Positions 11,466 through 41,747 of a DNA stretch of 41,779 nucleotides are shown piece by piece. Position 1 is the stretch's first letter; each line of letters starts with the position of its first letter. The stretch lies in the UHGV virus genome UHGV-0015611; one strand, given 5' to 3'. The stretch is from a virus. The notes under the pieces are model-generated. The model was not told the origin of the DNA, did no database searches, and saw only the letters and a list, made by a program, of their open reading frames with translations. The position numbers and the translations under genes were made by a program.

Positions 11466-11971
11466 GCTCCTGTATGACCATAAATTTTAGTTAATGTGAT
11501 TAACTGTTGACCATAAGCTGTTTGTTTCCAAGTGCCATAACCAGCATAATCCCCATCATTAGCCCATGTAAAATCGTAACTAATTGATAAACCATCAACT
11601 GATTTACTTGAAGCCAATCCAATAGGCAAAGCAGTCTTTAAAGCATTAGCTGCTGTGGGGTCCCCTGTTTGAGTCTGTAAGTAAAGGGTTAAGTGGTGGG
11701 CAATGTATAACCCCATCAAATACTTCCAATTACTGTAATATCTATCGTGTTTAATAGAGTGATTGGCCATGCCTAAGAACAAATTGAAAACTTCTTCAGG
11801 AATTTCATCCTCCCCATTCCCAATTGAAAAAACTGGGAATATAGCAGAAAAATCCTCCTGTGTGTAGGGAGGATTATCTGTCGTTATAACAGGGATAGCT
11901 CCTTTAAACAGGACTAACATATTCATGAGGGCTGAAGTATTGTCGCCTAGCATATCATAAAAGTTAAACAT
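11450..11971 (-). CDS. Head-tail connector protein (hypothetical)
   Basis: Position. Confidence 0.3.
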
Positions 11972-11997
11972 GTTGGAGCCTCCTTGTTTTTAATAAA

Positions 11998-12435
11998 TTA
12001 CTCAAGCATAAGCTTGTAAGCTTCAAGTACTCTTTTCTTATTCTGCTTAAGGGGTTCATCTTCAACAAATTCTGCATTATATTTTTCAGCTTCTGCCTTA
12101 ACCTCTGCAGCATTCATTTTACGAAGGGTTTCATAGTATTCATCAATAGTTGACGTTTCTTTGGTTCCCTCTTCTTCTTCTATGGGTTCCTCAACCTTTG
12201 GAGTTTCAACATTTGCCGGATTAGGAGTAATGCCCGAAACCATTGTAGGGTTGTTAACAATAGTAATTTCTCCAGCCTTTACAGCAGCCTTAAATGTAGG
12301 GTCATCTGTGTACTTCTCCGGCATATCCTGGAAAGAAAGTGGAACTGTGATAAAATATTCAACCTGAGGATTACCTTTCTGTGCTCCTGGTCCAATAGCG
12401 AAAGTCTTTTTTGAAAAAATTCTAATTGTGCTCAT
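11998..12435 (-). CDS. Hypothetical protein with a Glu-rich C-terminus, possibly a capsid decoration or head fibre protein
   Basis: Immediately downstream of the major capsid gene and its hairpin. Confidence 0.3.
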   Translation of the reverse strand: MSTIRIFSKKTFAIGPGAQKGNPQVEYFITVPLSFQDMPEKYTDDPTFKAAVKAGEITIVNNPTMVSGITPNPANVETPKVEEPIEEEEGTKETSTIDEYYETLRKMNAAEVKAEAEKYNAEFVEDEPLKQNKKRVLEAYKLMLE

Positions 12436-29239: not shown

Positions 29240-29278
29240 GAAAACTTTTACCATACGGCCTATTAGAGGCCTTATAGG
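29240..29278. repeat. Single copy of the dispersed element (GAAAACTTTTACCATACGGCCTATTAGAGGCCTTATAGG), lying between the DnaE-like and RecA-like genes
   Basis: It contains the 5-bp hairpin GGCCT-attag-AGGCC. Confidence 0.5.
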
Positions 29279-31998
29279 CGATGATAGGTTTTACTTAACA
29301 TGGCTATATTAAAGGATTCTACTCGCCTTATAAATTCTTTTTTGTTCCATTCCAAAGCCCCTGCCTCCTTAAGTAAGTTAAAGGTTCTATTGTTAAGCAC
29401 CCTGCCAGGAAGCCTTTCTTCAATGTCTGCTGTGTTTAGGTATGGGCCATTCTTTTTCTTTTCTTCTTCTATAGCATAAGCTACTTTTTCTCCTATGCCC
29501 TTAATAGAGGTTAAACCTCTTTGAATACAAATTTCACCATCAATTTCTTTTAAAGAGTATTGAGCTGAGCCATTTACATGGGCTAAAAAGATGATGTTGC
29601 CTGAAGCTACTGCCTCCCTTTCTAGCTGGAATATGTTACTTTCAATAGGACAATAACGAAGTTTACTCCACCAAAATTGGCTAGGATAGTAAAGTTTATA
29701 AAACATCTCCTCAACAGATATTAAAGAGTAACCTAAAGCATGCCCTTTATTAAATGAGTAAACTAGCATAGAGTTAAAAACCTCTTTAGCCTGGGACTTA
29801 GTTAAACCGTTTTTTGTAGCTCCTTCAACAAACTTATTGGAAAGCTCTTGTTTATCCTTCTCAAATTGGATTTTAGCGTCTTCACTTTGGGATTGGCCTC
29901 CAATCATTTTCATTACCTTGTCAGCGTCCCCCCAAGTCATATTACCAATTTCAACACATACCTTTTGAATTTGCTCTTGGTACACTACTGTTCCATATGT
30001 GTCTTTAGTGAAGTTATAATATAGGGATTTCTTAGCTTCTTTTGGGTGCTCCTTATTATAAGCATATAAAGCAGGAACCCCTGTTGATAAAGGGCCAGGT
30101 CTGTTAAGGGCATTAGCAGCTACTATGTCCTCAAAACAACTACAATTAATTTCCTTTAGAAGCTTTTGAACTGCTGGTTTGTCAAACTGAAATACTCCAG
30201 TAGTTTCTTGATTTCCAAAAGCTTTCATAATCTTTTTATCATTTGTAGCTTTTTCATAATTAACTGTTACTCCTGTTGTTTTTCTTAAGGCCCCAAGCTC
30301 CTCCATTGTCATTAACCCTAAAATATCAAACTTAATAACATTGATGTTTTCCAAATCATTGAGGTCATAATTGGTGTAAAGTTGGCCTGACTTACTATCA
30401 ACTCTAAGTGAAGTGTAATCTAAAATGTTTCCCCCAGTAATAGCTACTCCAGCAGCATGAGTTCCAATGAACCGCATCTTCTTATAAAGCTTAGTGAAGT
30501 GTGTGCATATATTATCATATAAAGCGTTGTACTTTTTAGTTAACTGGCTGCTTAGGAAAGTTTCAGTTAACAAGTTACCTTCTTCATCTAAATACTTGTT
30601 AATGTGCTCCTTTATTTTAGCAATAACTTCTTTATGTTCTAAGGCGTCCTCATCATCCTTTTTAGTTCCTAGCCCACAAACTTTAGCTAAGTCGTTAACC
30701 AAGTTATCAACCTTGTACAAACCATAGGAAGCTATTCTTGCTGTGTGCCCTTTATGCCTATTTATGATATAGTCAATGACCTCCCCACGACGGGACTTCT
30801 CAAAATCTAAATCTATGTCAGGCATTTTCTTTTTGTCTAACCTTAAAAACCTCCTAAAGTCTAAGCCATAATATAAGCTGTCAACTTCAGTTATGCCTAA
30901 GGCATAGGCTACTTCGCAATTGCAACAAGAGCCTCTTCCTGGCCCTACTGCTATGCCATGGGATTTAGCCCAATTAACATAATCATAAACCATGAGAAAG
31001 TAATCGTCAAATCCTAAAGACTCTATGACATGAAGCTCCTCTTTAACCCTGGCTTTATACTCAGGAGTCCATTTGCCCTTAGCTTTAAGTCCTCTAACGA
31101 CAAGCTCCCTAACTGTTACTCCTAACTGCTCTTGCATATTAGGGAGGGTTTGCTCTAGGTCTTTAAAAATATCTTCCTCTATTTTATTAAACAGCTCCTT
31201 GTGATTGCTCATATAAGAAATGCCAAGCTCCTTATCCTTATGCATTAAAATAAAGCGTTTAAGCATTTCTTTAGGGGTTGGCATGTAACGCTCTTTATAG
31301 GTTGATGTTATATGCTCTAAGTCATGTCCTGCCATTTGGTGCATTTTAAGGTATGTGTCAAAGTCTAGCTTATTTCCAAAGTGGGAGTCTGATGTAAGTA
31401 ATACTTTTACCTTGTGCTCCCTAGCTAACCCCATTAATTTGTCATTAACAGATTCTTGTAAACCTTCTTCAGATATGCTATAAGGTTGAACCTCTATGTA
31501 AAAGTCATCGCCATAAATGCTCTTAAGCTTTCTAATAAAGCCATTAGCAGCTTCTAATTTCCCTTCCTTTATAGCTTGGGATAAATAACCAGCAATACAA
31601 GCTGTTGTACATATAACCCCTTCACTATACTTTTCTAATAAATCCAAAGTCCAAATTGGATTATAATACTTTTGTTTTTCCCCTTCATACTGGAGGGTGT
31701 TTATGTTAGAGTAACCCTTAGCATTTTTAGCAAATAAGCATAAGTGATAACCTCTATGTTTTTCCTTATATTTTGGGAGCATGTAGCCTTCTACTCCTAA
31801 AACAGGTTTAATTCCTACTGACTTACAAGCCATATAGTGTTGAACTAAACCATTAGTGTTGCCATGATTGCTAATGCCTAAAGCAGGATAGCCATACTCC
31901 TTAGCTAACTTGGCTAACTCCAAGGCTTTGCCAAAGCCATCAAAGCTACTATACTCATCATGCCTATGAAGATCAAACCAATAATTTAATTTGCTCAT
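29272..31998 (-). CDS. DNA polymerase III alpha-like replicative polymerase (DnaE/PolC family, with an N-terminal PHP domain)
   Basis: The PHP motif is HLHRHDEYSSFDGFG. The 908-aa protein follows the DnaE architecture. No proofreading-exonuclease domain is evident. Confidence 0.65.
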   Translation of the reverse strand: MSKLNYWFDLHRHDEYSSFDGFGKALELAKLAKEYGYPALGISNHGNTNGLVQHYMACKSVGIKPVLGVEGYMLPKYKEKHRGYHLCLFAKNAKGYSNINTLQYEGEKQKYYNPIWTLDLLEKYSEGVICTTACIAGYLSQAIKEGKLEAANGFIRKLKSIYGDDFYIEVQPYSISEEGLQESVNDKLMGLAREHKVKVLLTSDSHFGNKLDFDTYLKMHQMAGHDLEHITSTYKERYMPTPKEMLKRFILMHKDKELGISYMSNHKELFNKIEEDIFKDLEQTLPNMQEQLGVTVRELVVRGLKAKGKWTPEYKARVKEELHVIESLGFDDYFLMVYDYVNWAKSHGIAVGPGRGSCCNCEVAYALGITEVDSLYYGLDFRRFLRLDKKKMPDIDLDFEKSRRGEVIDYIINRHKGHTARIASYGLYKVDNLVNDLAKVCGLGTKKDDEDALEHKEVIAKIKEHINKYLDEEGNLLTETFLSSQLTKKYNALYDNICTHFTKLYKKMRFIGTHAAGVAITGGNILDYTSLRVDSKSGQLYTNYDLNDLENINVIKFDILGLMTMEELGALRKTTGVTVNYEKATNDKKIMKAFGNQETTGVFQFDKPAVQKLLKEINCSCFEDIVAANALNRPGPLSTGVPALYAYNKEHPKEAKKSLYYNFTKDTYGTVVYQEQIQKVCVEIGNMTWGDADKVMKMIGGQSQSEDAKIQFEKDKQELSNKFVEGATKNGLTKSQAKEVFNSMLVYSFNKGHALGYSLISVEEMFYKLYYPSQFWWSKLRYCPIESNIFQLEREAVASGNIIFLAHVNGSAQYSLKEIDGEICIQRGLTSIKGIGEKVAYAIEEEKKKNGPYLNTADIEERLPGRVLNNRTFNLLKEAGALEWNKKEFIRRVESFNIAMLSKTYHRL

Positions 31999-32113: not shown

Positions 32114-32809
32114 TTAAAATACTCCCTGTATATCCTTATTATAAACATGAAGGCTAAAGATAGTATGGGTAAATGTGCCCACTGGGTACTTAGAGTAATA
32201 GGCGACATATTCCAAAAGCTTAATGGCCAAATAAACATCATTTACAAAGTGAGTAGCAAAGTCAGATGAGCGCATTACATAATGCATATTTAACTTACCA
32301 TCCCTAACCTGAAAGTTATAACCAAGTGAGCAAGGGACCCGAGAAATCCCTCCTATATTGTCCATGTCCTTAGTAACATCCCAGATACTCAACCAAAGCT
32401 GGCGTGAGTTAGGGTCATTCTCAATTGCTTTAATGATTTTCCAAACCTGATTATTACCCATTAACCTTTCATTATAAGTATAGGAGAATTTACCATCATG
32501 AAGGAACTCATCCCAGACCTCTTCCCTTGCTTTGTAGGCCTGGCCTGGGTTAACTGTGCCTGAAAGGTCAATTCTTTCAATGAACTCTTCATCAGCCCAA
32601 GGGAGGGTTACATTAAGCTGGTTAGCAATTTCTTTTGAGCTTGGACTAATTAACATGTAAGAGTAGTTCTGAAGCTCCTTAGTTTCATAATCAGGGTTTC
32701 CTTCAATTACTTTGTCTTGCATTGTTTTAGGTTTAATTAAGATTCCCATTTCAGCAAGGTCCCTTTTAATTTCCCCGTACATCTCTTTAGGGTTTAAATA
32801 GTATCTCAT
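32114..32809 (-). CDS. Divergent thymidylate-synthase-family enzyme (ThyA-like), a candidate dUMP hydroxymethylase or methylase
   Basis: Its C-terminal half aligns with ThyA. NDPNSRQLWLSIWD matches NDPDSRRIIVSAWN. VPCSLGYNFQV matches APCHAFFQFYV, with the catalytic Cys kept. DGKLNMHYVMRSSD matches DGKLSCQLYQRSCD, and the FVN Asn is kept. It is only 231 aa and the N-terminal TS motifs are missing. Confidence 0.55.
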   Translation of the reverse strand: MRYYLNPKEMYGEIKRDLAEMGILIKPKTMQDKVIEGNPDYETKELQNYSYMLISPSSKEIANQLNVTLPWADEEFIERIDLSGTVNPGQAYKAREEVWDEFLHDGKFSYTYNERLMGNNQVWKIIKAIENDPNSRQLWLSIWDVTKDMDNIGGISRVPCSLGYNFQVRDGKLNMHYVMRSSDFATHFVNDVYLAIKLLEYVAYYSKYPVGTFTHTIFSLHVYNKDIQGVF

Positions 32810-32840
32810 TTCGCTTCCTCCTTAAAAATATTATATAAGC

Positions 32841-32869
32841 ATTATACCACAATTTACTTAACCTGTAAA
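32841..32869 (-). promoter_or_regulatory. Sigma-A-type promoter that drives the ThyA-like/DnaE/RecA operon
   Basis: -10 TGgTATAAT at 32841-32846, 17-bp spacer, -35 TTTACA at 32864-32869. Confidence 0.6.
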
Positions 32870-33606
32870 TAGTCATCTATAGTTTTATTTGAGAGTACTA
32901 AAGGGTGTAACATAACAGCTCCGTTATAAACAGCTTTCATCCGGGAAACAGATTTATATGAAGGGTTCTTAAGGCCTTCTAATACCTCTTCTTTGAACTT
33001 AATAGCATAATCATGCACTCTATTGCCTTTGGTTAATTGGTACCATGAAAAGCAAAAGATACTTCTAAATGTTGCTGAAGCCCTAACATTTATATATGAA
33101 GAGGGTAAAACAAAAGTTATCGTTTTTATTTCTGGGGTAAACTCTTTAAACCACATAGACAACAAGGCCAAATCTGCAGCAAACCTACGATTGATTTCTG
33201 TTGCTCTGTAATACACAAATGCTTTAGTCCAAGCCTTTTTATTAGCCCTTGTTAAAACTATGGAAAGTAAACAACTTCCATTAAGCCCCGATGTTCCTTT
33301 CTTAGGCTTATTAGGGTTAAAGTTGAAAGTTATTGCAGTTCCCGTAGTGTTTTTAAGTTTATCAGAAAAACCCTTGTACTCATCTTTTAAAACATAAGTA
33401 TTGATTAGCATAGTCATTTTAGCAGGGGTGTAACCTAGCTTACTTAAATCAAAATTAAATGAGCTGTTTCTTGTAGTAACAATTAAGGGGCAAAGTGTTG
33501 GTCTTTGCCCCGTTAAACCTATTGAGTATTTATTTACATTTAAGAAAAGCTCTTTATTTAACTCTATGAACATACTTGTAAAATCTTCATACTCAAAACT
33601 GAACAT
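32854..33606 (-). CDS. Hypothetical protein (250 aa) embedded in the nucleotide-metabolism module
   Basis: No recognisable motif. It lies between the ThyA-like and MazG-like genes. Confidence 0.35.
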   Translation of the reverse strand: MFSFEYEDFTSMFIELNKELFLNVNKYSIGLTGQRPTLCPLIVTTRNSSFNFDLSKLGYTPAKMTMLINTYVLKDEYKGFSDKLKNTTGTAITFNFNPNKPKKGTSGLNGSCLLSIVLTRANKKAWTKAFVYYRATEINRRFAADLALLSMWFKEFTPEIKTITFVLPSSYINVRASATFRSIFCFSWYQLTKGNRVHDYAIKFKEEVLEGLKNPSYKSVSRMKAVYNGAVMLHPLVLSNKTIDDYLQVK

Positions 33607-34251
33607 TTAATAATTACTCCTTTGTCTAAACTTGTTAACTTGTGACTTTTTTAAATAAGTGTCTACTACTTCATTGCAGTCATCAAATGCGTAAAACAAA
33701 ATGCAAAAATAAGCTTTCCAGGTTTCTAACAGTCTTTCATAAAATACCTCTTTATCAGTAAGCATTTGGGATTGTTTCCAAGGCTTGTTTTTAAGGGAAT
33801 TACAAGTCATTCCTAATTTTTGAATAAACCGGGAAACAAAAGTCTCCAAGTTGTATCTGTATTTAAGTTTGGGGATGTTAAACAAAAATTCTAAAGCATT
33901 AGGGCTTGGCAAATACTTTGCAATAACTGTAGGGGTAAATCCAGCTAGAATGCTAAACTCTGTTAGAAAATGCAGGCCATCCACAAGTTCCTCTTTGAAG
34001 TGCTCTCTATCTTTATCTACATAAAGGGAGTCTAATGCCTCCCCCAATTCTTCAGTAATTCTCCAAGCAAAATCCTTGAGTCTTGCCTGACCTTTTTTAT
34101 CATCTAAGTTGACTGGGCAATCTGGGGTTTGAAGTAAACCTGATTTAGCCTCAATATTATGGTAGTTATCCATAAGCTCCTTCTGTCTATCGAATATAGC
34201 CTGTAAAGGGTCTTTGGTGACCTCTTCACTAATTGCGTCTTTAATGTTCAT
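33607..34251 (-). CDS. All-alpha NTP pyrophosphohydrolase (MazG/dimeric dUTPase/dCTPase family)
   Basis: The acidic EExxE/ExxD motifs RITEELGEALDSL and EELVDGLHFLTEF are typical of MazG-like dNTPases. Confidence 0.5.
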   Translation of the reverse strand: MNIKDAISEEVTKDPLQAIFDRQKELMDNYHNIEAKSGLLQTPDCPVNLDDKKGQARLKDFAWRITEELGEALDSLYVDKDREHFKEELVDGLHFLTEFSILAGFTPTVIAKYLPSPNALEFLFNIPKLKYRYNLETFVSRFIQKLGMTCNSLKNKPWKQSQMLTDKEVFYERLLETWKAYFCILFYAFDDCNEVVDTYLKKSQVNKFRQRSNY

Positions 34252-34796
34252 TGATGTCCCTCCTTAAATAAGTAATTTACTTGGTCTAAAATTATATTAG
34301 CAAGGTCTTCCCAATTATCTTCCATAAAATTGTAATTAAAAACTCTGGAGGTGATTTTATGAATGTAAGGAAAAGCTTTATAACCTTCGATGAGTTGTTT
34401 AGCATTTTCCTTTATGCCTTTCATTTGCTCCCTTTCGCCCCATTCTAAGATTTTATCCTCCCCAGGGTTACAATGAATAAAGAATGTAATTTGATTAAGC
34501 ATGTTACTAACATATGTTGCATGCGATGAGAAGTTGTTACGGTTTCTTAAAATGTTACCACAAACTTCTTCTTCAATAATAGGAAATCTATCGAATATCT
34601 GAATGTCGTTGTCAGTAAATTTAACATCTGTAATATGTTTATCCATAAACCTTACTTGCTCCGAAAGTGAAGCAGGCCCCAAACTTTTAATTGGTGTTGC
34701 TGGCTGGCCATTTTCCCAGAGATACTGAACCAAGTTGTTTGTTAGTGTAGTCTTACCTGAGTTGTCGCATCCGTAAACTACTATGTTAATCTTCAT
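34248..34796 (-). CDS. P-loop deoxynucleotide monophosphate kinase (dNMP/thymidylate-kinase-like)
   Basis: Walker A motif VVYGCDNSGKTTL. It also has FDRF, a DRY-like motif. 182 aa. Confidence 0.5.
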   Translation of the reverse strand: MKINIVVYGCDNSGKTTLTNNLVQYLWENGQPATPIKSLGPASLSEQVRFMDKHITDVKFTDNDIQIFDRFPIIEEEVCGNILRNRNNFSSHATYVSNMLNQITFFIHCNPGEDKILEWGEREQMKGIKENAKQLIEGYKAFPYIHKITSRVFNYNFMEDNWEDLANIILDQVNYLFKEGHQ

Positions 34797-35583
34797 CCTC
34801 TTCTGTCTCCTTTTCCGTCTTTAGTTCATCGTAAGCTTCCTGAAGGTCTTCTTCCTCATAATTATCAAAAAGCTCATCTATCAAATCTTCAACCTCATCA
34901 AATGCCTTAAGCTCCTTCTTGGTCATTCCAAAATCTAAGGCAATATTTTTGACCTCATCATAATCAAGTTCATCGAGGAAATGCTCCTTGAGAGTTTTCT
35001 TAGCCTTTTTAATTTTCTTTGACTTTTTAGGATTTTCCTCCTCTACTTCATCATCCTCTTTGTCTGCTTCCTGGTCAGATGTATAAGCCTTTGTAAGTAT
35101 ATCAAGCATTTCAGCTCTACTAAATGGCTTTACTTTAATTCTGAACTTTTCCTTTTCCAAAGGGAGAACTGTAAACGAAGAAGATTGGCCTGCTCCAACC
35201 TTTTTAATCTTATAGTCCCGGTCCATTATAGTGCCAAACTCATCATACATACTAATAAGAGCTGGAGCTGCTGACTGGGAGGTGACCCTGCTTTTAAAAA
35301 TTCTTACTTCGTTAGAATCATAATCCCAAACTGACCAACAATATTCAGACTTTAAATTAACCCCCTGTTGACAAAGTGGGCAATCTTCATGGTCCTCTGG
35401 GTCTTTGCAGAGTTCATAAATCTTGTTGTTGAAATCTGAATGAAAAACAAATTCTTCGCCTGTATCAAGCTCTTGTAGAAAACGAATTCTTTTAACTGTG
35501 TCTGCCTTAAAGTACATTACCTTGCTTCTTGACCCGCCTGACTGAGCTATCTTCTGTTTCATTAACTGTACTAAATTTGCCAT
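34786..35583 (-). CDS. Single-stranded DNA-binding protein, T4 gp32-like
   Basis: It has an H/C zinc cluster (CKDPEDHEDCPLCQQ). Its C-terminal tail is strongly acidic (EEEDLQEAYDELKTEKETEEDED). Confidence 0.45.
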   Translation of the reverse strand: MANLVQLMKQKIAQSGGSRSKVMYFKADTVKRIRFLQELDTGEEFVFHSDFNNKIYELCKDPEDHEDCPLCQQGVNLKSEYCWSVWDYDSNEVRIFKSRVTSQSAAPALISMYDEFGTIMDRDYKIKKVGAGQSSSFTVLPLEKEKFRIKVKPFSRAEMLDILTKAYTSDQEADKEDDEVEEENPKKSKKIKKAKKTLKEHFLDELDYDEVKNIALDFGMTKKELKAFDEVEDLIDELFDNYEEEDLQEAYDELKTEKETEEDED

Positions 35584-35618: not shown

Positions 35619-35647
35619 AGTATATCACTTTTGTTTTGACTTGTAAA
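35619..35647 (-). promoter_or_regulatory. Sigma-A-type promoter that overlaps the 3' end of the primase gene (-10 TGaTATACT)
   Basis: -10 at 35619-35624, 17-bp spacer, -35 TTTACA at 35642-35647. Confidence 0.5.
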
Positions 35648-36605
35648 TGAGTTTTTCAAATTGTCCTTTAATTTCTTTTAACTCTTGTGTGTTTTTGTTT
35701 ATGTCCCCAAAATCTTTTACTTCCTTAGGATACTTTAACCTGTAAACTTTTATATCTTCTGTTTTACATATTTGTTTTAAGTATGTGTATCCCTTGTTTC
35801 CTGCCTCATCATTATCTAAGGCGCATATTATAGTTGTTATGTGTTTACGTTTTATTTTGTTTAGTTGCTTTTTAGAGATTTTCCAGCCTAGTAAAGCTGC
35901 TACGTTTTTAAAACCTAATTGCAAAGCTTTTAAACAGTCTAGGTAACCTTCTACTAAAATAATTGGTTCCTCTTTGTTATATTTGCCTGGTAGAGTTAAC
36001 TGCCTTCTAAAACCTGTGTTATATAAGTACTTTCTTTTACTTTCTATTTCTGGATTAAATGTTCTTAAAACGTATCCCCTAAACACCTCATTTTCAACTA
36101 AAGGAAATATTATAGGATAGTTTGGGTTTAAAGAAGGTTTGGATCCAATGTCAGTAAGTAGTTTGTTAGAAAACCCCCTAGACTTCATGTACTGCCTACA
36201 TAATAAAGTTTCTTCGTGTATAGCTTGATTTTCCCTTGGCTTATACCAATTAGGGTCAGGTAAGCTTTCATAATATGCTCTTGCTTGAGTTACTGCTTGT
36301 TTTTGTGAAAGCCTTTTAGTTGTTATTACTTGAGCGTCTAAGGCTTTAAATGGGGTTTTAAGGCCCCTTTGGGTGATTTCTTGTAATTTAATGTTAGCTT
36401 GTAGTTTATTAAGGCCTGGCTCAAAATATGTAATTAACTCTAAAGGCCCTCCATGGGCTTCGCACCCATAACAATGAAAGTAGCCCTTAACAACATTGAT
36501 TTGTAAACTTGGGTTTTTGTCCTTGTGAAATGGGCAAATAACTTTATATACTGGAGAGTCTAAGAATAAACCATAATGCTCCAGGACTTTAACAAACTCA
36601 TTCAT
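35625..36605 (-). CDS. DNA primase (DnaG-like, with a CHC2 zinc finger and a Toprim domain)
   Basis: Zinc finger CPFHKDKNPSLQIN...FHCYGCEAHG. Toprim segments EGYLDCLKA and ALDNDEAG. Confidence 0.65.
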   Translation of the reverse strand: MNEFVKVLEHYGLFLDSPVYKVICPFHKDKNPSLQINVVKGYFHCYGCEAHGGPLELITYFEPGLNKLQANIKLQEITQRGLKTPFKALDAQVITTKRLSQKQAVTQARAYYESLPDPNWYKPRENQAIHEETLLCRQYMKSRGFSNKLLTDIGSKPSLNPNYPIIFPLVENEVFRGYVLRTFNPEIESKRKYLYNTGFRRQLTLPGKYNKEEPIILVEGYLDCLKALQLGFKNVAALLGWKISKKQLNKIKRKHITTIICALDNDEAGNKGYTYLKQICKTEDIKVYRLKYPKEVKDFGDINKNTQELKEIKGQFEKLIYKSKQK

Positions 36606-37077
36606 TTTCTTTTTTTACTCTTGTAACTATAGATTTTTTGTAAGTAACATCCATAAAAGGTTTTATTTCATTTAAGGTGATTTCTTGGCTGTTGTATAAT
36701 GCGTCAAGTTTTTCTTTGTTAACTTGTCTAGTAACCTCAAAGAATTCTTTAACATCTTGTGGTTTAATGTCATGCTCTCTAAAAACATTAAGTAAGCCTT
36801 TCCAATCGTTAACCTTATACTCTGTGTCAATGAATTTATTTCCTAATGTTTTAGGGAGTTCTTTAAACATTGCCTTTACATTGTATGTAACAAAGACCCT
36901 GTCTTGAACAAATACCTGGCCGTTATCGCTTCTTAAACTACTAGTGCCTGACTTTTCAAAGTAGTTAGCCATGATGGACTTCTTTTCTGCCTTTATCTGC
37001 TCCAACCTATCTATTTCTTTTTGGGTGTTTAACAATTCATCAAATACTTTATTGATGTCAATCTTCTTTTTTGCCAT
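36598..37077 (-). CDS. Hypothetical protein (159 aa, start MAKKKIDINK), possibly a replication or recombination accessory protein
   Basis: RBS AAGGAGGG precedes the ATG at 37077. The track ORF extends to 37167. Confidence 0.35.
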   Translation of the reverse strand: MAKKKIDINKVFDELLNTQKEIDRLEQIKAEKKSIMANYFEKSGTSSLRSDNGQVFVQDRVFVTYNVKAMFKELPKTLGNKFIDTEYKVNDWKGLLNVFREHDIKPQDVKEFFEVTRQVNKEKLDALYNSQEITLNEIKPFMDVTYKKSIVTRVKKENE

Positions 37078-37327
37078 GATTTGTGCCCTCCTTTTGTTTT
37101 GTGTATATAAGTGAGTTGTAAACTCCTTTAGGGTATTTAGAGCCTTTCTTGACCCAAACAATATCATTTTTACTTATTGTGTATATTGAGTTATTTAGTG
37201 TTTTAACAACATAATTATTGGGGTCAATTTCTATAACTTTGCCTGTAAGCATATAATTGCCAAGTTTAAAGGCTATGTTACTTCCTAAAGTTATTGAGTT
37301 TATAAAGTCTTCCTTAGTTTTAACCAA
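37058..37327 (-). CDS. Hypothetical protein (89 aa)
   Basis: RBS AAAGGAGG. It is preceded by the leader-ORF and hairpin element. Confidence 0.35.
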   Translation of the reverse strand: MVKTKEDFINSITLGSNIAFKLGNYMLTGKVIEIDPNNYVVKTLNNSIYTISKNDIVWVKKGSKYPKGVYNSLIYTKQKEGTNHGKKED

Positions 37328-39151: not shown

Positions 39152-40297
39152 TTATTTCTCCAAAATTTGAACTTTCTTTTCTTTCTGGATCCAATCAACA
39201 TAGCAGTTAAGAGCCTCAGCTATAAAACGAATGGGAACCAATGTTCTATTGTTTTTGTCAATGTAAGGGGCTACATCCAAGTAAGTTTTTAAGCCATTTA
39301 CGTAAGCTATGTCACTACCTGTTGTTAGAGTTATTCTATTAGCCCCTTTATCGATAATAACAGTAATTGATTTGTTGTCGTTCATTCTCCAATAGACTTT
39401 AGCTCCAAGGGCCTCTGAGATAACCCTAATAGGAACCATGATTCTCCCTTGATTGTTAACTGGCTTTGTGTCCATTGTGTAGCTCTCCCCATCAATGAAG
39501 TACTCATTTGTAGTAGTTTTCATTGTAATGTACTTTTTGTTCCAATCGGGTAACACTGGCATTCCCCAACCGGTGTATCTATCATGGCCAGGACCTTCTA
39601 AATCAGTACAAATCATTTTAAGGTATTGATGTGTTTCCTGTTGGCTCATATGACCATATCTTTGCATTAACATGGAGATTTGTCCTGCCAATGCTGGAGT
39701 AGAAGCTGATGTCCCCGAGTACCATAGAACCAATTGGGAAAAGTCAATGTCCTCCCCTACTGAAGAGTAGTTAGCTCTTTCTATAACTTCAGGCTGGCCC
39801 TTATATTTAATAAGGTTTAAAGCCCCTACCACATGGGAGATTTCTGTAGGGAATTTAGCATTAGTAGTATCCTTGTCTTTATCCCTTGCCTCCCCTTCGT
39901 TACCAGCGCATTGGCAAATAACAAGATTGTACTTTTTAGCAAGGTATCTAATGTACTCCTGCCATTCTTTGCAAGGATTATATCCTACTTTAGAGGAAGT
40001 TATAATATCAATTTTATACTTTTTGATAAACTCCTCCATGCCTAAATCCCTTTTTGTTAAAGGGTCTGAAATTGAAAGGGAAAGGATTTTGTCCCCTTCT
40101 GTTGTAAGGTTTATGCTTCCCCAGTAAACAAAAGCATGTGGATTTACATCTAGCACTATTTGTCCGGTGCAGGCTCCGTGATTAGCATTCTCCTCGATGT
40201 TCCAGACGTTTACTGGATTTATGTTGTAGAAGTGCTGCCTCCATTGGGTAACTCCCATTAAAGGAAGTTGTTTGTTAAGGTCTTGTTGTTTACTCAT
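39152..40297 (-). CDS. Subtilisin-like serine peptidase (S8 family) with two copper-amine-oxidase-N-terminal-like cell-wall-binding repeats
   Basis: Ser motif GTSASTPALAGQ. Oxyanion-hole motif AGNEG. His motif HGACTGQ. The C-terminus carries the duplicated repeats IMVPIRVISEALGAKVYW and TLVPIRFIAEALNCYVDW. Confidence 0.5.
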   Translation of the reverse strand: MSKQQDLNKQLPLMGVTQWRQHFYNINPVNVWNIEENANHGACTGQIVLDVNPHAFVYWGSINLTTEGDKILSLSISDPLTKRDLGMEEFIKKYKIDIITSSKVGYNPCKEWQEYIRYLAKKYNLVICQCAGNEGEARDKDKDTTNAKFPTEISHVVGALNLIKYKGQPEVIERANYSSVGEDIDFSQLVLWYSGTSASTPALAGQISMLMQRYGHMSQQETHQYLKMICTDLEGPGHDRYTGWGMPVLPDWNKKYITMKTTTNEYFIDGESYTMDTKPVNNQGRIMVPIRVISEALGAKVYWRMNDNKSITVIIDKGANRITLTTGSDIAYVNGLKTYLDVAPYIDKNNRTLVPIRFIAEALNCYVDWIQKEKKVQILEK

Positions 40298-40748: not shown

Positions 40749-41189
40749 TTAATAAAACAATGTTGAAAAAGTTTGCACATCATTATTGGTATCACTAAAA
40801 AAGCTGGATGTTCTCGTTATCACTGTGTAAATTCCAGCAGTTGTAATATTTACAGAGTTATAAGGGACAACCACATCTTCACTGTCATCCGTGGGCCTAG
40901 CAATAAGTTTTGTATAAACTTGCTCTCCATTGATTAAAACCGAAAAAGTAACATCACTTCTTCCAGAAGCATGGGTTCCACTATTGAAATGGAAAACCAT
41001 GCTTCCTTTTAAAATATCATTTGAAGAAATAATCAAAGAGTGCTCTACATCATTTGTTTTATTTTGGTTTTTCCCCCAAGAAGTATCTAAATCCAAACTT
41101 GATATCATTTTATTTGAAGCGTAATTTGATAGGGCTTCTAAAGTAACAATGTTAGAGTTACTCCAATTTTGTTGTAAAGCTGTTGCCAT
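40749..41189 (-). CDS. Putative tail fibre/receptor-binding accessory protein (146 aa, Ser/Thr/Asn-rich)
   Basis: Composition. If the sequence is circular it lies directly downstream of the fibre gene. Confidence 0.3.
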   Translation of the reverse strand: MATALQQNWSNSNIVTLEALSNYASNKMISSLDLDTSWGKNQNKTNDVEHSLIISSNDILKGSMVFHFNSGTHASGRSDVTFSVLINGEQVYTKLIARPTDDSEDVVVPYNSVNITTAGIYTVITRTSSFFSDTNNDVQTFSTLFY

Positions 41190-41201
41190 TATAACCTCCT
41201 T

Positions 41202-41747
41202 TTAAGAAATGGATAACCAGATTTTTTTGACAACCATTGTGGCTGTATATTGGGAAGAACTTGTTGAGCCATATGTATCACAAACAAGTTGTATGTTGAA
41301 GCTATCGCCTAATGCTCCAAGCTGGGATAAATTATTAGAAATTTCTTGGTCATAAAATACCTCAGAATTAGAGTGATTTTGCCCAGTAAACATAGTTTGG
41401 CCAAAAGATGAAATGGAGCAATTAGCCTTAGCAGAGCTACCTATCTTGTATGAAATTGAAAAATTTATTGTATTGTAAATTCCCAAGTTTAATGAAAATA
41501 GACTTCCATTATTATTTGAAAAAGTAACAGAAGCCCCTGCAGAGCCATATTTGTTTATTATGCTGTAAATCTCTATGTTGCCATCTTGTAAAATAGCATA
41601 AGAATGTGCATATTGTACTCCAGAATCTACATTGAAAATTAAACTGCCAAGCCCTTGAACTGTCCCATTCCCAAATATAGTATAAGTTAAACCCCTATAA
41701 TCCAAATACTGCAAAGCATAAGGGGATTTATTAAATAGTGTAGCCAT
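41202..41747 (-). CDS. Putative tail fibre/receptor-binding protein (181 aa, Ser/Gly/Asn-rich)
   Basis: Composition. RBS AAAGGTG. It sits 23 nt after the inferred stop of the gene that crosses the junction. Confidence 0.3.
   Translation of the reverse strand: MATLFNKSPYALQYLDYRGLTYTIFGNGTVQGLGSLIFNVDSGVQYAHSYAILQDGNIEIYSIINKYGSAGASVTFSNNNGSLFSLNLGIYNTINFSISYKIGSSAKANCSISSFGQTMFTGQNHSNSEVFYDQEISNNLSQLGALGDSFNIQLVCDTYGSTSSSQYTATMVVKKIWLSIS

Follow-up and report, generated by a model that had tools for sequence, protein, structure and literature searches.

A conserved four-gene phage cassette with two predicted thymidylate-synthase-fold proteins and its probable role in cytosine replacement

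The four-gene module of UHGV-0015611

The window analysed here is UHGV-0015611 (41,779 nt), an essentially complete metagenomic phage genome of ~42 kb that is AT-rich (~36% GC). Megablast of the region under study gave no match to cultured phages, and relatives were recovered only by protein-level searches. The region contains four adjacent minus-strand open reading frames (ORFs), which we propose to be a portable T4-like pre-replicative cassette that probably replaces deoxycytidine (dC) with a C5-modified dC. Beginning with the first gene of the cassette, the four genes are as follows (aa, amino acids; dNMP and dNTP, deoxynucleoside mono- and triphosphate):

34248..34796, minus strand: putative dNMP kinase, thymidylate-kinase-like P-loop protein, 182 aa
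33607..34251, minus strand: all-alpha dNTP pyrophosphatase, homologue of the T4 gp56 dCTPase/dUTPase, 214 aa
32854..33606, minus strand: protein with a predicted, divergent thymidylate synthase fold, 250 aa, phrog_34294, no Pfam model
32114..32809, minus strand: ThyA-family enzyme with a predicted cytosine-type active site, 231 aa

The original prediction, which had been made from the nucleotide sequence without database searches, placed its four genes correctly, and the motifs that it singled out (VPCS, MRSSD, FVN and PLIVTTRN) are all found in the translations. Its family assignments mostly hold as well, given the matches to Thymidylat_synt, dUTPase_2 and, for the P-loop protein, phrog_761. 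The genes are tightly packed: the start of the kinase gene overlaps the end of the preceding SSB-like gene by 11 nt, the pyrophosphatase gene shares 4 nt (ATGA) with the kinase gene, the gene of the 250-aa protein directly abuts the pyrophosphatase gene, and a 44-bp gap lies ahead of the gene of the 231-aa protein.

The active site of the 231-aa ThyA-family protein

The 231-aa protein matches the Pfam family Thymidylat_synt (PF00303) with an E value of 1.9e-17 and a score of 63.8 bits (cut-off 24.3), over profile positions 77-217 of 266 only, and falls below the cut-offs of all NCBIfam thymidylate synthase equivalogs (13-72 bits vs 108-576). It was aligned with Escherichia coli ThyA, T4 gp42, XP12 gp59, the Mosigvirus 5-hydroxy-dCMP (deoxycytidine monophosphate) synthase and SPO1 gp29. 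Between the catalytic cysteine and the specificity residue the alignments are gap-free, except for that with SPO1 gp29, where there is one extra residue; a phmmer alignment to PDB entry 9iqu has the same register. The residues of E. coli ThyA, whose numbering is used below for positions in the family, correspond to those of the 231-aa protein as follows:

C146: Cys160
R166: Arg180
S167: Ser181
D169: Asp183
N177: Asp191

The Asn of the FVN motif, which had been taken for the residue that specifies uracil, is Asn190; it aligns with E. coli F176 and T4 N178, one position before the specificity site, which is occupied by Asp191. The comparison of active sites with thymidylate synthase and with the hydroxymethylases of dCMP and deoxyuridine monophosphate (dUMP), suggested together with that claim, returns a cytosine-type Asp and not a uracil-type Asn. 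An Asp at position 177 is the determinant of dCMP specificity and is statistically linked to metavirome contigs with modified cytosine (PMC13326640, PMC8670742, PMC6400193, bioRxiv 10.1101/2024.12.05.627091), and N177D mutants of genuine thymidylate synthases switch to dCMP, as cited in two of these sources (PMC8670742, PMC13326640). We therefore consider the enzyme to be of the cytosine type rather than the uracil type, as judged from its aligned residues.

Two further positions set the protein apart. Arg157 is found at the position of E. coli L143, three residues before the catalytic cysteine (Cys-3), and Tyr110 occupies the position designated Tyr-2. All 35 homologues compared have R157, C160, D183 and D191, and Tyr110 is likewise invariant in the clade. 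All partners of the 250-aa family that were checked, with the exception of that of protein P0264 described below, share an Arg / Arg-Gln / Asp-Asp signature, and proteins with this signature form a distinct clade of the ThyA family.

The 231-aa enzyme retains the residues of the folate machinery (D183, equivalent to D169, Y112, W99-D-E-F, H221 and Y223). Only 8 residues follow the equivalent of Y209 vs 55 in E. coli ThyA, and the C-terminal lid, which in E. coli ThyA and the XP12 methylase seals the active site for hydride transfer (PMC6400193), is absent. The AlphaFold2 model (predicted local distance difference test, pLDDT, 87) has a complete ThyA-like core, and its top Foldseek matches are 9iqc/9iqu and MilA. 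The truncation that had been placed at the N-terminus is not confirmed; the missing part is mainly the C-terminal lid.

A predicted thymidylate synthase fold in the 250-aa protein

Searches with the 250-aa protein gave no match in Pfam, NCBIfam or PDB sequences, and the only PHROG retrieved, phrog_34294, has no annotated function. An exhaustive profile search expanded the family to 437 or more clusters (50% identity). Pfam models matched none of the 42 diverse members scanned, and no Pfam match was obtained in any of the longer members (300-483 aa), which were scanned for fused domains. AlphaFold2 modelling with a 35-sequence alignment (pLDDT 91.4, predicted template modelling score 0.90) produced a ThyA fold, and the profile of diverse family members aligned to a ThyA-superfamily alignment with an hhalign probability of 94.7% and an E value of 1.2e-8. 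With shallow alignments the hhalign probability was <1%, and significance was reached only once the diverse sequences of the exhaustive search were used. The protein is thus predicted to have a thymidylate synthase fold. The earlier statement that it has no recognisable family stands as far as Pfam and NCBIfam are concerned and fails at the level of the fold.

The hhalign alignment relates the following residues of E. coli ThyA to those of the 250-aa protein, and the latter are its candidate catalytic residues:

C146: Cys112
R166: Arg134
D169: Glu137
N177: Asp145
Y209: Tyr171

In the AlphaFold2 model, Asp145 is the fifth residue of a helix that starts seven residues past the arginine, as in ThyA. 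Y59, K63, L67, Y71, C112, R134 and D145 are invariant in the 42 diverse members, and W64, F96, E137 and R/K141 are nearly invariant, with Glu at position 137 in 40 of the 42. Hence, the fold, the catalytic cysteine and an equivalent of Arg166 in register are all found. The PF00303 match, the Arg126/Arg127 phosphate clamp and the Glu58 general base are not. The segment facing 'DPDSRR' reads 'TTGTA' in the family ('KLKNTTGTAITFNF' against 'QLKNDPDSRRIIVSAW'), and the trans-subunit phosphate-binding Arg126/127 are therefore absent, though alignment confidence is lower in this segment. Similarly, no conserved acidic residue occurs at the position of Glu58, three residues before W64, where alignment confidence is low.

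The single sequence closest to the family profile is the Mosigvirus 5-hydroxy-dCMP synthase (probability 85.8% over 160 columns, with a shared N-terminal helix motif); all other single reference sequences score 27% or less. The nearest relatives in BFVD are uncharacterised proteins. The earlier proposal that the 250-aa protein is a candidate novel modification enzyme carrying a relic of the ThyA fold is borne out by the modelled fold and the mapped residues, which remain predictions. Two GenBank records name homologues 'pyrimidine hmase synthase'; no paper was found for the product name 'pyrimidine hmase', which probably stems from the label of a conserved domain. A role as a deaminase acting by covalent catalysis was also considered and is disfavoured, since the cassettes of Gram-negative phages already carry a zinc deaminase.

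The pyrophosphatase and the kinase

The 214-aa protein matches Pfam dUTPase_2 (all-alpha NTP pyrophosphatase) with an E value of 1e-7, as well as phrog_12184 (E 6e-41) and phrog_173 (E 2.4e-10), and T4 gp56 belongs to the same two PHROGs. BLASTP against T4 gp56 gave an E value of 1e-3, with an N-terminal KDPLQ motif in common. A hidden Markov model (HMM) built from nine cassette pyrophosphatases matched T4 gp56 at an E value of 2e-8 and did not match SPO1 gp22.1. The motifs EExxE, ELxDxxHF and KNKPWKQ are invariant in the cassette proteins. The shared PHROGs, the HMM match and the EExxE...ExxD metal-binding motifs place the 214-aa protein in the gp56 family.

The 182-aa kinase belongs to phrog_761, 'thymidylate kinase' (E 1.1e-14). 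It scores below the cut-offs of Pfam Thymidylate_kin (E 0.065) and TIGR00041 (18.9 bits vs 83). All nine kinases of the module that were compared keep the P-loop GCDNSGKT, of the form GxDNxGK(T/S), and a DR(F) motif. A thymidylate-kinase scaffold suits 5-substituted pyrimidine monophosphates, in our estimation. An alternative identity as a 5-hydroxymethyluracil DNA kinase (5-HMUDK) was rejected because the DR motif is of the thymidylate-kinase type and the enzymes encoded alongside are of the cytosine type, and not on the strength of a direct comparison with 5-HMUDK.

Conservation of the cassette

The gene order (kinase, pyrophosphatase, 250-aa family, ThyA-like protein) is the same in all ~30 phage loci examined. 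These include 16 of the 16 IMG/VR loci found with the 250-aa family, in which the kinase always comes first, and about a dozen further loci. The order is seen in Serratia phage Serbin, Yersinia phage P744, gut-metagenome contigs that bear DnaE, and contigs with a polymerase in which uracil-DNA glycosylase (UDG) is fused to PolA. Ten Clostridium perfringens phages carry a homologue of the 250-aa protein, and the order was inspected in two of them, P21 and CPAS-15; homologues were also detected by protein matches in Pseudomonas phage PMBT14 and four other Pseudomonas/Stutzerimonas phages. Several of the carrier phages and their hosts are in culture, CPD4 and CP3 of C. perfringens among the phages. 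The genes of the 250-aa family lie directly upstream of a 231-aa-type gene or within two small genes of it. Even two very distant members (E ~1e-14 to the profile) are encoded directly or one small gene upstream of a ThyA-like gene, whose products show the same Arg/Asp signature. Given the identical order across loci and the start/stop overlaps between genes, the four genes are a functional unit, far beyond what chance would produce.

The two ThyA-fold proteins differ in how well their sequences are preserved: relative to its counterparts in the C. perfringens phages, the ThyA-like protein of the window is 59-65% identical and the 250-aa protein only ~25%. An exception to the pairing is the 483-aa family member P0264 (L020:2-658, on a 2.2-kb contig), whose upstream neighbour is a canonical ThyA of the Asn type, complete with its C-terminal tail; the pairing rule may differ in remote branches of the family. 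Some phages carry tandem copies of the 250-aa gene that are ~50% identical, both with the Cys/Arg/Glu/Asp set (extra-copy loci L008:10001-11738, L018:4484-6004, L034:6989-8487, L030:8759-9457 and L036:8762-9460), and in other related phages a third, more divergent copy is located 3' of the ThyA-like gene. The extra copies suggest diversification or hetero-oligomers.

The polymerase slot beside related cassettes holds DnaE, the UDG-PolA fusion or PolA, and genes for a single-stranded DNA-binding protein (SSB)-like protein and a DnaG-type primase precede the cassette in most related loci. In relatives resembling the C. perfringens phages, UDG, a 3'-5' exonuclease and PolA are fused (L009:12051-14504, L010:6435-8888 and L011:10509-12947), and the fusion accompanies cytosine-type ThyA homologues; a similar UDG/polymerase fusion occurs in SP-15/YerA41-type phages, which have modified thymidine (bioRxiv 10.1101/2025.03.26.645540). 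In Gram-negative cassettes (Serbin, P744 and locus L022), a gene of the dCMP deaminase family and PolA lie beside the ThyA homologue. In abundant gut-phage relatives, two genes just downstream of DnaE encode a 177-aa protein that matches ThyX (Thy1) faintly and a pyrimidine-dimer glycosylase (Pyr_excise) of the T4 endonuclease V type (L015:10429-10965 and 11665-12075; also in L016 and L017). The window has neither of these genes.

PHROG scans were carried out with 28 ORFs of the window lying outside its structural half; they belong to the replication region or, in a few cases, to packaging. The scans detected no glycosyltransferase, DNA methyltransferase, canonical ThyA or ThyX, dihydrofolate reductase (DHFR) or deaminase among these ORFs, nor 5-HMUDK, aGPT-Pplase or other thymidine-hypermodification genes. 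The related loci that were inspected contain no DHFR either; the host enzyme could substitute.

Comparison with known pathways

The T4 system (gp56, gp42 and gp1) has the same three-part logic, and its parallel with the window, which had been drawn from the sequence alone, is supported by the homology of the cassette pyrophosphatase to gp56. The N178-D179 pair of gp42 at positions 176-177 is the same as N190-D191 of the 231-aa protein; both keep D169 and the catalytic Cys, and both are without the C-terminal lid. The proteins differ in that the essential Asp145 of gp42 at Cys-3 is replaced by Arg, and Ser94 at Tyr-2 by Tyr. T4 gp1 belongs to a kinase family (phrog_139) different from that of the cassette kinase. 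Compared with T4, the cassette adds a ThyA-fold paralogue, lacks glucosyltransferases among the ORFs scanned and is part of a ~42-kb genome with a DnaE-type polymerase.

Phages of the XP12 / PaMx74 type make 5-methyl-dC with a dCMP methylase and a deaminase selective for 5-methylcytosine (5mC), and their methylases share Asp177 without an acidic Cys-3 with the 231-aa protein (bioRxiv 10.1101/2024.12.05.627091). The deaminase-family gene and PolA beside the ThyA homologue recur in the Serbin, P744 and L022 cassettes. XP12 gp59 differs in keeping the full C-terminal lid, with 61 residues after Y209 vs 8 in the 231-aa protein, and its neighbouring gene carries the GenBank note 'dihydrofolate reductase'. 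The XP12 locus that was inspected has no annotated member of the 250-aa family, and XP12 is absent from the tblastn results obtained with the Serbin member of the family.

The flavin-dependent 5-hydroxy-dCMP synthases (RB69 gp48, DLP3 gp80 and HY126 AfhB; PDB 9iqc/9iqu; PMC13326640) are nearest to the 250-aa family by structure and profile. Their diagnostic substitution D169N (PMC13326640) is found in neither window protein, the residue being Asp183 in the 231-aa and Glu137 in the 250-aa protein, and they keep the equivalents of Glu58 and Arg126/127, which the 250-aa family does not. Genes for glycosylation with arabinose or other sugars were not found in the window ORFs scanned. SPO1 gp29, finally, is a ThyA homologue of a phage of Gram-positive hosts and has, like the 231-aa clade, Arg-Gln at positions 126-127. 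It differs in its length (383 aa) and in having Asn at 177 and Asp at Cys-3, the combination that defines an SPO1-type dUMP hydroxymethylase; the 231-aa enzyme has D191 and R157 there, and both window ThyA-fold proteins have Asp at 177.

Proposed pathway and alternatives

In the pathway that we propose, the gp56-like pyrophosphatase would hydrolyse dCTP, and probably dUTP too, to the monophosphate, by which ordinary dCTP would be kept out of phage DNA and dCMP fed forward. Cys160 of the 231-aa enzyme would then attack C6 of dCMP while Asp191 reads the cytosine, and a one-carbon unit from methylene-tetrahydrofolate would be placed on C5. In the third and weakest step, the 250-aa protein would act as a second Cys-dependent, cytosine-type ThyA-fold enzyme. 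It is without an equivalent of the folate-activating Glu58 and without the trans-subunit phosphate arginines. Most likely it would perform non-folate, perhaps flavin-based, chemistry with dCMP or the second-step product as its substrate, or else work as a hetero-oligomer with the 231-aa enzyme. The kinase would phosphorylate the 5-substituted dCMP for the host nucleoside diphosphate kinase and the phage DnaE, and the latter would need to accept the modified dNTP. The net prediction is that C, not T, is largely replaced in phage DNA, presumably as a protection against host nucleases. We infer all these activities; the residues and the linkage of the genes are observed directly.

Since both ThyA-fold proteins have Asp at 177 and the pyrophosphatase matches gp56 and not SPO1 gp22.1, we find a cytosine-derived base far more probable than either 5-hydroxymethyl-dU or modified thymidine. 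The product could be 5mC, 5-hydroxymethylcytosine (5hmC) or something new. By the rule of thumb of the field, Asp177 without an acidic Cys-3 would mean 5-methyl-dCMP; the missing lid and the lack of a DHFR gene would fit a hydroxymethyl-type or other non-reductive product better. We regard it as possible, although doubtful, that the 250-aa protein and the Arg-type dCMP enzyme make a cytosine derivative not yet described in DNA, which replaces C in many phages. In such a route the C5 one-carbon group might be oxidised or substituted at the nucleotide level, giving a base other than 5mC, 5hmC and 5-hydroxycytosine, and the phages concerned would be a large group infecting Clostridium, Serratia, Pseudomonas and Yersinia or found in the gut.

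Several points weigh against cytosine replacement by this pathway. The product cannot be assigned, because neither enzyme fits the signature of thymidylate synthase, dCMP hydroxymethylase or 5-hydroxy-dCMP synthase. The 231-aa protein matches PF00303 and does not have the Asn177, the lid and the hydrophobic Leu143 of a thymidylate synthase; hydroxymethylases have Asp or Glu at Cys-3 and Ser or Thr at Tyr-2, with T4 D145N being inactive (PMC6400193), in place of Arg157 and Tyr110; and, for an XP12-type dCMP methylase, Asp is present at 177 while the lid is absent and no DHFR was seen in the ORFs scanned or the related loci. The substrate specificity of the pyrophosphatase and the kinase cannot be read from sequence, and the names of their families and of the third (dUTPase, TMP kinase-like and thymidylate synthase) fit an ordinary supply of dTTP equally well. 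The mapping of the 250-aa protein to ThyA has low alignment confidence beyond the Cys-to-Asp core, and its role is a conjecture. In the openly accessible literature that we searched, no modified DNA is reported for cultured phages that bear the cassette, and the papers on Serbin and P744 hold nothing on DNA modification or restriction resistance.

Phages of the 9g type carry deazaguanine-modified DNA. Serbin is reported to be related to the 9g group and to be without the queuosine-synthesis gene cluster of that group (PMC6509536); a different modification cassette in Serbin would fit this relationship, which is only suggestive.

One alternative keeps the cytosine pathway and makes the 250-aa protein an obligatory partner subunit (in a heterodimer) or a regulator of the 231-aa enzyme, the product being simply 5mC or 5hmC. 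ThyA proteins are obligate dimers whose active sites borrow Arg126' and Arg127' from the other subunit; the 250-aa family is without both arginines, the 231-aa clade has Arg-Gln there, and the two genes are strictly or nearly adjacent even in very distant lineages. We consider this arrangement unlikely, since the Cys, Arg, Glu and Asp that would make up a full pyrimidine-activating site are kept across the 42 diverse members, as expected of a protein with its own catalysis, and tandem duplicates both retain the candidate catalytic residues.

The main rival of cytosine replacement is an ordinary dTTP supply, in which a dUTPase gives dUMP, a thymidylate synthase gives dTMP and a thymidylate kinase gives dTDP, the DNA is not modified, and the 250-aa protein would be a paralogue that is either accessory or degenerate. 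The labels dUTPase_2, Thymidylat_synt and 'thymidylate kinase' (phrog_761) point this way, as do the concordant GenBank annotations in P21, CPAS-15, Serbin and P744 and the AT-rich genome, and the UDG fused to the polymerase of relatives suggests a concern with uracil. The chief contradiction is the invariance of Asp, not Asn, at 177 in the clade, taken together with a strictly conserved extra paralogue that keeps its catalytic Cys and is sometimes duplicated; the switch of N177D thymidylate synthases to dCMP, as cited in PMC8670742 and PMC13326640, bears directly on this position. Considering in addition the NCBIfam equivalog scores, all far under the cut-offs, the missing lid and the lack of DHFR, we judge this explanation to be quite improbable.

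Least tenable is the SPO1-like pathway of the original prediction, with thymidine replaced by 5-hydroxymethyl-dU or a further-modified thymidine: while the trio of ThyA homologue, dNTPase and dNMP kinase fits SPO1 as well as T4, and the dCMP deaminase of Gram-negative cassettes could supply dUMP, 5mC phages also encode such deaminases alongside Asp-type ThyA homologues (bioRxiv 10.1101/2024.12.05.627091), the Asn on which a dUMP-derived base was based is out of register by one position, gp29 itself keeps Asn at 177 and Asp at Cys-3 where the 231-aa enzyme has Asp and Arg, gp22.1 is not matched by the pyrophosphatase HMM, and no thymidine-hypermodification genes occur among the ORFs scanned, which makes the pathway highly improbable here.

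Novelty and distribution

The overall logic of the pathway is already known. What appears to be new is a clade of predicted Arg-type dCMP enzymes outside all three published product signatures, together with a large ThyA-fold family that is closely linked to this clade and not seen by domain databases; no paper on either was found in the openly accessible literature. A textbook enzyme family would gain two active-site variants, and the nearest relative of the 250-aa family is the flavin-dependent dCMP hydroxylase, itself a recent discovery. A single ThyA-like homologue accounts for 254 indexed blocks of the contig collection, 170 of which have contigs of 20-50 kb, and the cassette moves between phages with three different polymerase types. 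If cytosine is indeed replaced, many restriction enzymes and CRISPR nucleases would be ineffective against these genomes, and sequencing and cloning may mis-handle them; a modified cytosine would also be relevant to C. perfringens phages under development for biocontrol.

Regulatory sites and neighbouring genes

Other features at the locus are as follows:

32841..32869, minus strand: promoter-like site TTTACA, 17 nt, TGgTATAAT (consensus match)
32817..32823, minus strand: Shine-Dalgarno sequence AAGGAGG, 7 nt 5' of the ATG of the 231-aa gene, as read from the sequence
29272..31998, minus strand: DnaE-type DNA polymerase with Pfam PHP, DNA_pol3_alpha, finger and HHH_6 domains, adjoining the cassette downstream
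34786..35583, minus strand: SSB-like gene, upstream of the cassette
35625..36605, minus strand: DnaG-type primase, upstream of the cassette

A RecA/UvsX homologue is also encoded on the downstream side of the cassette. The promoter-like site, which matches the consensus at 11 of 12 positions and has an extended -10 element, includes the stop codon (32854-32856) that ends the 250-aa gene and extends into the 44-bp gap. It is therefore internal to the cassette and upstream of the 231-aa gene and DnaE only, so that, as predicted from its consensus, it can serve only these two genes. The site had been described as shared by all four genes; it is present where expected, and three of the four lie upstream of it.

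All ORFs with an assigned function are on the minus strand, and cumulative GC skew declines steadily across the window (1-41779), in which no transfer RNA genes were found. A 381-aa ORF (39152-40297) has only a weak protease-like PHROG match, and several early ORFs (36598-37167, 40749-41747) are without any family match. A GC-rich hairpin, GGGGCAAAG...CTTTGCCCC, lies at 33487-33511 (minus strand) in the 5' part of the 250-aa gene, with a folding free energy of -16.6 kcal/mol vs -11.4 +/- 1.5 in codon-shuffled controls. It is not present in ten other homologues. A comparable hairpin occurs within the first ~145 nt of the homologous genes of P21, Serbin and locus L029, and in Serbin the spot is annotated 'terminator' in GenBank.

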